A DNA stretch of 64,000 bases from Escherichia coli (lineage in GTDB: Bacteria > Pseudomonadota > Gammaproteobacteria > Enterobacterales > Enterobacteriaceae). The notes below the pieces were generated by a model. It was not told the origin of the DNA. It saw only the letters and a program-made list of their open reading frames with translations, and ran no database searches. The position numbers and the translations under genes were made by a program. The first letter of the stretch is position 1. Every line of letters starts with the position of its first letter. Where the stretch lies: the NCBI RefSeq assembly GCF_024700885.2, contig NZ_CP117016.1, one strand, 5' to 3'. This document shows, one piece after another, positions 23,048 to 44,982 of the stretch.

Positions 23048-23578
23048 GTGCAGTTTATGAAACATTCATTTGAAGTAAAACTTGCCGCTGTAAATCATTA
23101 CCTGGCCGGTCATGCAGGCATCATTTCTACGGCAAAACTCTTTCAACTTTCTCACACCAGCCTCTCACACTGGATTAATCTTTTTCTTCTTCACGGTCCT
23201 CGGGCACTGGATTGCAGACACAAGCGTAGCTATTCTCCTGAAGATAAACTTTGCGTGGTTCTTTATGCTCTCGGGCATTCTGAGTCTCTACCCCGGGTAG
23301 CTGCCCGGTTTAACATTCCCAGCCACAACACGGTTAAAAACTGGATAAAAGGCTACCGCAAATCTGGTAATGAGGCCTTTATCAGGCGCAGGAAGGAGAA
23401 AAGCATGACCCGTTCTGATGATACCCATGAAAACGAGGCAAACATGACGCCGGAAGAGATGAAGAATGAGCTGCGTTATCTTCGCGCAGAAAATGCATAT
23501 CTGAAAGCCATGCAGGAGCATCTCCTGGAAAAAAAGCGCCAGGAGCTGGAGAAAAAACGAAAGTCATCCGGAGCCTGA
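23048..23578 (+). CDS. IS3-family transposase OrfA (HTH DNA-binding part)
   Basis: 176-aa ORF with HTH and leucine-zipper-like C-terminus; A6C slippery run at 23552-23558 near its 3' end. Confidence 0.8.
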   Translation: MQFMKHSFEVKLAAVNHYLAGHAGIISTAKLFQLSHTSLSHWINLFLLHGPRALDCRHKRSYSPEDKLCVVLYALGHSESLPRVAARFNIPSHNTVKNWIKGYRKSGNEAFIRRRKEKSMTRSDDTHENEANMTPEEMKNELRYLRAENAYLKAMQEHLLEKKRQELEKKRKSSGA

Positions 23579-23682
23579 GGTGCGGACACTGCCAGCCTGA
23601 CCTGTTAAAGGCTGCAGGGCTGGCCAGAAGCACGCTGTACTACCAGCTGTCACTGCAGAAGGCTAAGGACAAGTATGCTGAT

Positions 23683-24535
<853 letters not shown>

Positions 24536-29763: not shown

Positions 29764-29839
<76 letters not shown>

Positions 29840-29878
29840 ACGATGCGTTTACGTACCAAATTTGCTGGGTGCAAAATT

Positions 29879-29954
<76 letters not shown>

Positions 29955-32652: not shown

Positions 32653-32728
32653 GGGTGATTAGCTCAGCTGGGAGAGCACCTCCCTTACAAGGAGGGGGTC
32701 GGCGGTTCGATCCCGTCATCACCCACCA
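32653..32728 (+). tRNA. valU: tRNA-Val (anticodon TAC)
   Basis: GGGTGATTAGCTCAGCTGGGAGAGCACCTCCCTTACAAGGAGGGGGTCGGCGGTTCGATCCCGTCATCACCCACCA. Confidence 0.9.
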
Positions 32729-32772
32729 ACTACTTTATGTAGTCTCCGCCGTGTAGCAAGAAATTGAGAAGT

Positions 32773-32848
32773 GGGTGATTAGCTCAGCTGGGAGAGCACC
32801 TCCCTTACAAGGAGGGGGTCGGCGGTTCGATCCCGTCATCACCCACCA
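32773..32848 (+). tRNA. valX: tRNA-Val (anticodon TAC)
   Basis: Identical 76-nt copy. Confidence 0.9.
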
Positions 32849-32894
32849 CTTTCTCGCCAGCTAAATTTCTTGTAAAAATGTGAAGTACCGAAGT

Positions 32895-32970
32895 GGGTGA
32901 TTAGCTCAGCTGGGAGAGCACCTCCCTTACAAGGAGGGGGTCGGCGGTTCGATCCCGTCATCACCCACCA
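32895..32970 (+). tRNA. valY: tRNA-Val (anticodon TAC)
   Basis: Identical 76-nt copy. Confidence 0.9.
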
Positions 32971-32974
32971 CTTC

Positions 32975-33050
32975 GGGTCGTTAGCTCAGTTGGTAGAGCA
33001 GTTGACTTTTAATCAATTGGTCGCAGGTTCGAATCCTGCACGACCCACCA
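32975..33050 (+). tRNA. lysV: tRNA-Lys (anticodon TTT)
   Basis: GGGTCGTTAGCTCAGTTGGTAGAGCAGTTGACTTTTAATCAATTGGTCGCAGGTTCGAATCCTGCACGACCCACCA, 4 bp after valY. Confidence 0.9.
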
Positions 33051-35891: not shown

Positions 35892-37916
<2,025 letters not shown>

Positions 37917-37923
37917 TCAATGC

Positions 37924-37947
37924 TAAAAACCCCCGACAAGCGGGGGT
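37924..37947 (-). terminator. Putative terminator downstream of zipA
   Basis: Stem cccccg / cggggg with a T-run on the minus strand (complement of aaaaa at 37925-37929). Confidence 0.4.
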
Positions 37948-37977
37948 TCGAAGAGGAGTTAATTTGCCTTAAGTGTA

Positions 37978-38976
37978 TCAGGCGTTGGCGTCTTTGACTT
38001 CGCGGATGATGTCCTGGTACTCGCGCAATTTCTGCGGAGTCATCATACGGCGCTGATCGTCAAGCACTACACCGCCCACTTCATCGGCAATATGCTGCGC
38101 AGATTGCAGCATCAGCTTGAAGTTCTGCAGCTCGTCACCGTAAGACGGTACCTGCATAAAGATAGTGACACCCGGAGTAGTGAAATCCTTCATTTCAGGA
38201 TCAAAGGTTCCCGGTTTCACCATATTCGCCAGGCTGAATAACGCCGGGCCGCTGCCATCCGGGCTAAGATGACGATGGTAAATATTCATATCGCCAAAAA
38301 TGAAGCCCGCTTGTTGAATGCTGTTAAGAAGCAGTTCACCGTTTAGCTCGCTACCGTGATGCGCCGCGACGTTCATGATAATCACCGCTTCTTTACGCTT
38401 CGGTTTATCCATAACTGGAGCCGGTTCCGCTACAGGCTCAGGCTGTGGTACCGCTACGGGTTCTGCAGGCTGGAAAGCCTGTTGTGCCGGTTGCGGTGCT
38501 GAATGCACTGGCTGCGGCGCTGACGCGACTTGTGGCGAAACTGGCTGCTGCAACGGCTGTTCAGGCTGCGGCTGATAGGCAGGCTGCTGCACGGGTTGCT
38601 GCACCGGCTGCGCTGGACGCGGAGCATGTTGCGGCGGTACCTGCGCTTCAGGCGGCTGCTGGACCGGTTGACGCGGCTGCGCAGACGCATAAGGCGGTTG
38701 GTACTGGTGTTGCGGCGACGGACGAGCAGCCTCATGCTCCTGGGCGTTAGCCGGGGCATGATTCACGCGGTGAACACGAACCTCACCAACGCCCTCATCA
38801 TCTTCGACATCCTCGTCATAAGAATCGTCGTCACGTTTTGACTTCATTCGTTTTAATGGCCGATCGCGGAACATAGAAGATCGTTCTTTACGGCTGGTCC
38901 AGAAACCATGTACCAGTAAAGCGATTATGGCGATCGCGCCAACAATGATTAATATCAGACGCAAATCCTGCATCAT
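37978..38976 (-). CDS. zipA: Cell division protein ZipA (FtsZ membrane anchor)
   Basis: [34 protein letters not shown]-terminal anchor, long P/Q-rich linker, C-terminal FtsZ-binding domain; six-frame ORF extends to 39027. Confidence 0.85.
38415..38766 (-). repeat. Low-complexity Pro/Gln-rich linker-coding repeats within zipA
   Basis: Repeated QPVQQP / PQPEQP / APQP units in protein and matching short GC-rich nucleotide repeats. Confidence 0.6.
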
Positions 38977-39205
38977 TATATTCTCTGTTGTTCTAACACC
39001 TTGCCACCACGGCAAACATTTACTCACTAAGAGTATTTGCCGATTACCTCAAGTGCAAGTGCACTATTAACTTTCACAGCACAAAGATAGATGAAATCGT
39101 GCTTTTTGCTGTTTTTTCGAACATATCCTAACTGTCCATTGCGCAATTACCCGGTAAAATACGCAGAATTTTCCTGGGATTGGTCAAAAGGAGCTCATCC
39201 TGATT

Positions 39206-44095: not shown

Positions 44096-44129
44096 CAGTG
44101 AAAAATGGCGCCCATCGGCGCCATTTTTT
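44096..44129. terminator. Bidirectional rho-independent terminator between crr and pdxK
   Basis: aaaaa-TGGCGCC-catc-GGCGCCA-tttttt. Confidence 0.6.
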
Positions 44130-44982
44130 ATGCTTCCGCCAGCGGCGGCAAAATCAATTCATCGCTCTCATGCTGCTGGGTGTAGCGCATCACTTCCAGT
44201 ACGCGCAACCCCGCACGGTGCACCGCATCGTTTAACGCCTTCCCTTTCAGCAAACCACTGATAAGCTGAGCACAAAACAGGTCGCCAGTCCCTTTCAGGT
44301 CAGTTTTAACCCGTGAATGGGAAATGACATTCACGCTGTCGGCACTGACCACCACCACCACCTGCATCTCCTGATTTTCTTCGTTACCGGAGGCGCTGGT
44401 AATCACCACCCATTTTAATGTGTCTGAAAGCAGACTTTTTGCGGCAGCAATGGCACTGTCGAGATCGCGGCAATTTTTACCGGTCAGGATTTCCAGCTCA
44501 AAGATATTGGGGGTAATTCCCTGCGCCAGCGGCAGTAAATATTGTCGATACGCCTCGGGAAGGTCAGGTTTGACATAAATTCCGCTATCAATATCGCCAA
44601 TCACCGGATCGACCATGATCAATAGGTCAGGATGGTCTTTGCGTAGCGCAGTCATCCACTCGGCAAGGATTTTGATTTGCGATGCCGTTCCCATATAGCC
44701 CGTGGTTACAGCTCGAAGTTGGCGCAGCGCATCACGCTCCTGAAGCGCACGCAAATAGCCGCTAAACCATTCGTCCGGAATCGCACCACCGTAGAAAGTG
44801 TCATAATGCGGCGTATTGCTCAGCAATACCGTCGGCACGGCAAAGACATTCAGGCCGTTCTGTTTGATAGCAGGCACGGCAATGCTGTTGCCTACGCTGC
44901 CGTACACTACCTGCGACTGCACGGCGACGATATCCGCCTGCAATGCCCTGCTCTTATCGTTAAACAACAACAAACTACTCAT
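44128..44982 (-). CDS. pdxK: Pyridoxal/pyridoxine/pyridoxamine kinase
   Basis: 284-aa ribokinase-superfamily [36 protein letters not shown]. Confidence 0.8.

Follow-up and report, generated by a model that had tools for sequence, protein, structure and literature searches.

A four-residue in-frame length polymorphism in the Pro/Gln-rich linker of ZipA in Escherichia coli

The C-terminal linker of FtsZ and the Pro/Gln-rich linker of FtsK are disordered and variable in length. For ZipA, the closest described protein is that of E. coli K-12, whose 328 aa are divided into a periplasmic segment (residues 1-6), a membrane helix (7-28), a charged domain (29-85), a Pro/Gln domain (86-185) and a globular FtsZ-binding domain (186-328) (PMC6904479). 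The linker is described there as a flexible, intrinsically unstructured tether (PMC6904479, citing Ohashi et al. 2002), and the same paper itself questions how freely the linker can move. A literature search for natural length polymorphism of the zipA linker found this domain description and no paper on the polymorphism. ZipA, its disordered tether and a 332-aa RefSeq allele are already known or catalogued, and the result that we describe here is one expected of a low-complexity spacer.

We analysed a 64,000-nt stretch of E. coli DNA (NZ_CP117016.1), hereafter called the window, in which zipA lies on the minus strand (Table 1). Translation from an ATG-ATG start at 38976 to a stop at 37978 gives a protein of 332 aa that begins MMQDLR. 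The gene has 100% DNA identity with the annotated 332-aa zipA of strain 1190 (WP_001469417.1). Pfam ZipA_C (PF04354) matches at aa 198-321 (E=3.2e-46; 156.8 bits, cut-off 23), placing the protein in the ZipA family, and the window protein is also matched by full-length ZipA in the PDB (9iue, E=1.4e-212) and, over aa 189-332, by chains 1f46, 1f47 and 1f7w. Among the open reading frames of the window and in all annotated loci fetched, cysZ lies divergent from zipA and ligA lies downstream, which is the conserved enterobacterial position. In a four-protein alignment the N-terminal 85 aa were identical in the window, K-12, EM10-18-28 and 1190 proteins; this identity to K-12 ZipA points to the same arrangement in the window protein: a single N-terminal transmembrane anchor, then a charged region, then a Pro/Gln-rich one. 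The FtsZ-binding domains of the window and K-12 proteins align as identical throughout, from which we predict that window ZipA is required for division and binds the C-terminal peptide of FtsZ.

Table 1. Features of zipA in the window (positions are those of the whole stretch).
Feature	Position	Strand	Evidence
zipA CDS (cell division protein ZipA), 332 codons + stop	37978..38976	-	translation, DNA identity, Pfam, PDB, gene order
N-terminal membrane anchor (aa 1-28) and charged domain (aa 29-85)	38722..38976	-	PMC6904479 limits
Pro/Gln-rich disordered linker, aa 86-189	38410..38721	-	PMC6904479 limits moved onto the window protein; composition; indels
VQQP unit 1, GTGCAGCAACCC on the coding strand	38593..38604	-	K-12 lacks it; DNA alignments, breakpoint analysis
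VQQP unit 2, GTGCAGCAGCCT on the coding strand	38581..38592	-	in both alleles
C-terminal globular FtsZ-binding domain, aa 190-332	37981..38409	-	Pfam PF04354, PDB chains; no length variation

Several other open reading frames were considered at the locus and set aside. The list of open reading frames gives 349 aa for zipA, extending to an in-frame GTG 17 codons upstream of the ATG-ATG, and we rejected this GTG as the start codon, the annotated homologues fetched at the DNA level beginning with MMQDLR. Two public ZipA proteins of 349 aa proved to be true 17-aa linker duplications, not N-terminal extensions. Three frames of about 100 codons that run across the linker (38445..38750 and 38530..38841 on the plus strand, 38454..38759 on the minus strand) were not regarded as genes. 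Open frames of this kind follow from the stop-poor CAG/CTG/GCN composition of the region, and their translations are low-complexity strings of Ala, Leu and Arg.

Beyond zipA, positions 17978-58979 of the window are 99.976% identical to strain 1190, with seven substitutions and one 3-nt indel. That indel, the only one in these 41 kb, is an additional GTG within a (GTG)5 run at 44349-44363 in pdxK (44128..44982, minus strand), which gives a PdxK of 284 aa (QVVVVVS) in the window versus 283 aa in strain 1190; the change, of one codon and in frame, is recent and of slippage type. In a copy of the IS3-family element IS1397, annotated in strain 1190, at about 23060-24410 between mntH and ypeC, four of the seven substitutions (23596, 23790, 23875 and 23898) lie clustered, which suggests that the IS copies differ, that gene conversion has occurred between copies or that the assembly is noisy here. 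Two tRNA clusters around gltX, one of two tRNA-Ala(GGC) genes (29764-29954) and one of three tRNA-Val(UAC) genes and a tRNA-Lys(UUU) gene (32653-33050), are the normal E. coli arrangement; the RtT sRNA is annotated beside the Val/Lys cluster in strain 1190.

The preliminary description of this stretch gave ZipA as 332 aa against 328 aa in K-12, and both lengths agree with our data: the zipA gene of K-12 MG1655 is 987 nt long and encodes 328 aa, the length also of the full-length PDB chain and of the protein in PMC6904479. It further judged the Pro/Gln-rich linker the probable site of the difference, and protein and DNA alignments bear this out. The window and K-12 proteins differ by a single gap of 4 aa (12 nt), VQQP, and by three substitutions, in which the window has R120 for H, S152 for P and V176 for A; all of these changes lie within the linker. 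In the window protein the gap falls at residues 123-126 and can equally be placed up to 125-128. The interval that had been proposed for the linker, 38415-38766, contains the indel but corresponds to aa 71-187, so that it takes in about 15 residues of the charged domain and misses the last two of the linker. Composition sets the linker apart from the rest of the protein, with 29.8% Pro and 25.0% Gln (55% together) compared with 4.4% and 4.8% in the remainder of ZipA; its DNA is 65% GC and consists mostly of CAG and CCG codons.

At the DNA level, the window allele belongs to a two-unit class, in which GTGCAGCAACCC and GTGCAGCAGCCT stand side by side at 38581-38604. The coding strand reads CAGCCG-GTGCAGCAACCC-GTGCAGCAGCCT-GCC in the window and CAGCCG-GTGCAGCAGCCT-GCC in K-12. 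The two units are identical at 10 of 12 nt, and both differences are synonymous third positions. In breakpoint analysis, every point in an 8-nt stretch of identity, GTGCAGCA, is an equally good place for the ends of the 12-nt indel.

To establish how common each form is, we searched 5,426 complete E. coli genomes with whole-gene and 150-nt junction queries. The whole-gene query matched 5,425 of them, and the sampled matches, a few excepted, measured 999 nt or 987 nt. (One genome had no match, and two of the 5,428 zipA matches lay on records typed as plasmids.) The two-unit junction, taken as at least 95% identity to the 150-nt query, was found in 2,383 records. Matches of 90-95% and 80-90% identity numbered 2,961 and 82 (about 3,043 records), and those sampled all had one unit; 70 further records, in which the match spanned under 80% of the query, carried larger indels. 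The window allele is thus one of two major forms, with roughly 44% of genomes two-unit and 55% one-unit. Two units occur in O157:H7, Nissle (EcN) and JJ1887, and one unit in K-12 and in O111:H8 and O22:H8 strains.

Rarer alleles are also stable within lineages. An allele of 309 aa, with a 23-aa deletion in the linker, has the same sequence (100% identity over 300 nt) in 22 complete genomes, among them that of an O25:H4 strain, and this identity indicates that it is stably, clonally inherited. Those genomes are mostly from human isolates, the allele occurs in 1,861 blocks of a public contig index, and it may serve as a lineage marker. The zipA locus is not hypervariable: two alleles cover almost all genomes, and the less frequent ones are stable within their lineages.

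Across Escherichia, a homologue search of public data returned ZipA clusters of 295 to 375 aa. We counted indels by hand in an alignment of 120 cluster representatives with the window and K-12 proteins, plus two alleles from complete genomes. The Pro/Gln linker, which makes up 31% of the protein, held 28 of 32 distinct indel events (binomial p about 7e-11, the events being not fully independent and their placement somewhat ambiguous in low-complexity sequence). Three events fell in the charged domain (gain of EDV, loss of EDV and gain of E), and one was an odd 16-aa insertion in a metagenome protein. No indel was seen in the membrane helix among the aligned Escherichia ZipA proteins, and no internal indel in the FtsZ-binding domain among the 120 representatives. 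All intact zipA alleles differ by multiples of 3 nt and remain in frame.

The linker contains several families of degenerate direct repeats, spaced mostly at multiples of three nucleotides, and every junction that we checked at the DNA level lay at a short in-phase direct repeat (4-9 nt) or a tandem duplication, an identity that is partly expected by chance in a low-complexity region. The 309-aa allele is a 69-nt deletion between 9-nt direct repeats, GCGCAGCCG. Two alleles have deletions between the 8-nt direct repeats CAGCAGCC, namely that of 308 aa (60 nt, from a one-unit, K-12-type parent) and that of 295 aa (111 nt, relative to the 332-aa form), while a 303-aa allele (75 nt, likewise from a one-unit, K-12-type parent) has the 4 nt CAGC at its junction. 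Gains take the form of tandem copies: the 349-aa allele is a perfect 51-nt tandem duplication, and the 354-aa allele has three copies of a 39-nt unit (2 x 39 nt gained).

These junction sequences suggest slippage as the mutational mechanism. The linker DNA, rich in GC, offers short, in-phase, degenerate direct repeats of CAG and CCG codons (CAGCAGCC, GCGCAGCCG and GTGCAGCA among them), whose misalignment, by replication slippage or short-homology recombination, would occasionally delete or duplicate the DNA in between. Only in-frame indels would survive, since zipA is essential and the FtsZ-binding domain lies downstream, and a wide range of lengths would be tolerated because the tether is disordered. 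By this route the lineage that contains K-12 would have lost one VQQP unit through a 12-nt deletion, giving 328 aa, and the window would have kept both.

The preliminary description had also called the nucleotide repeats of the linker prone to slippage. One 12-nt unit has indeed changed, with 8 nt of identity at the junction, but the repeats are short and degenerate direct repeats and do not form a tandem array: Tandem Repeats Finder, run over 37900-39100 with a minimum score of 30, reported no array. When the codons of the linker were shuffled, 4,033 of 20,000 shuffles (20%) matched the adjacent 12-nt pair, so the pair is not significant alone, and it is comparison with other genomes, not repeat statistics, that establishes the VQQP indel as real. 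Nor does the locus behave as a phase-variable simple-sequence locus, having two 12-nt units that match at 10 of 12 positions, no array, and alleles that are stable and in frame.

What the length variation means for the cell can be approached from its range. In nature the tether is shorter by as many as 37 residues in some alleles and longer by as many as 43 in others, which supports the view that the Pro/Gln domain is a spacer under weak constraint as to its exact length, and the four-residue difference between the window and K-12 proteins is presumably functionally neutral. A selective reading would hold instead that lineages tune the tether to envelope geometry, cell width or the properties of the FtsZ ring, and that the alleles are adaptive. 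Fixation of alleles within lineages, the dominance of two length classes in the species and the bounded natural span (295-375 aa) can be cited for it, but neutral clonal inheritance predicts lineage stability equally well, tolerance of so wide a span of lengths points to weak constraint, and a disordered chain is little altered by four residues in the 104 of the linker (3.8% of its length). With length showing no link to phenotype in the present data, we regard selection on linker length as unlikely. There is a similarly slim chance that tether length, over the series from 295 to 375 aa, of which some members are fixed in successful lineages (the 309-aa allele of O25:H4-type genomes, for example), tunes Z-ring placement or dynamics, cell size or tolerance of envelope stress; if so, the alleles would be a ready-made natural experiment on the length that the membrane tether of FtsZ requires. 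ZipA alleles are in any case possible lineage markers or starting material for experiments on tether length.

Outgroups bear on which of the two common forms came first. In E. albertii and E. marmotae, whose ZipA proteins have 331 and 330 aa respectively, QPVQQP precedes QPV(P/Q)Q(S/P), which makes two units; at the DNA level the first unit in each species shares with window unit 1 the codon CAA for its second Gln. The presence of two units in both species indicates that K-12 lost a unit and not that the window strain gained one. By parsimony, then, two units are most likely ancestral, and the 328-aa form of K-12 would be a derived 12-nt deletion. On this polarity the two-unit form of E. coli would also have lost CAGCCA (QP), which is found between the outgroup units. 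We infer a single origin for the K-12-type deletion, with recurrent loss or spread by recombination as possible alternatives.

The opposite polarity, in which K-12 has the ancestral state and the extra 12 nt are a recent duplication in the lineage of the window strain, could draw on the adjacency of the two units and their identity at 10 of 12 nt. Yet the two synonymous differences between the units imply that any duplication is old, both units are present in 2,383 records of diverse lineages that include O157:H7, Nissle (EcN) and JJ1887, and the two outgroup species are two-unit and have the CAA codon in common with window unit 1. We therefore consider a recent duplication very unlikely. If instead the two-unit form is ancestral, the laboratory reference K-12 probably carries a derived, shorter ZipA.

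That the length difference is an artefact, whether of a GC-rich repeat wrongly sequenced or assembled or of a different call of the start codon, is almost certainly wrong: in a complete-genome record of strain FCI17, zipA is indeed frameshifted, with garbled bases precisely at the VQQP repeat, and the ORF call does reach 349 aa from the upstream GTG, but the window allele is identical to that of an independently assembled genome and common to thousands more, and the aligned N-termini are identical with the gap internal. The FCI17 gene (NZ_CM172722.1, locus 301-1294) is 994 nt long, is annotated as a frameshifted pseudogene and has GGCGCCC at the VQQP repeat; since zipA is essential in K-12, its frameshift is probably an assembly error. 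The window zipA is normal and intact, and its length difference is a common polymorphism, not an error, a pseudogene or a novelty of one strain. We are confident in reading it as ordinary zipA, present as the common long allele in a strain of E. coli that is almost the same as the canine isolate 1190.

Set beside described systems, the window protein is closest to known forms of ZipA. It is a member of the class of the RefSeq 332-aa allele (WP_001469417.1, strain 1190; of equal length in O157:H7, EcN and JJ1887), from which it shows no difference. K-12 ZipA (328 aa; WP_001300494.1; 9iue; 1F46/1F47) has the same gene position and domain order and is 99% identical, but it has one VQQP unit where the window protein has two and differs by the three linker substitutions. 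Like contingency loci and VNTRs, the zipA linker acquires indels at repeated DNA in whole repeat units; it differs from them in having no long perfect tract, in being stable within lineages and in showing no on/off switching. The linkers of FtsZ and FtsK belong to proteins different from ZipA and are alike by analogy only; the ZipA tether may be compared to both as a low-complexity, flexible spacer between a domain and its anchor or partner, tolerant of change in sequence and length.
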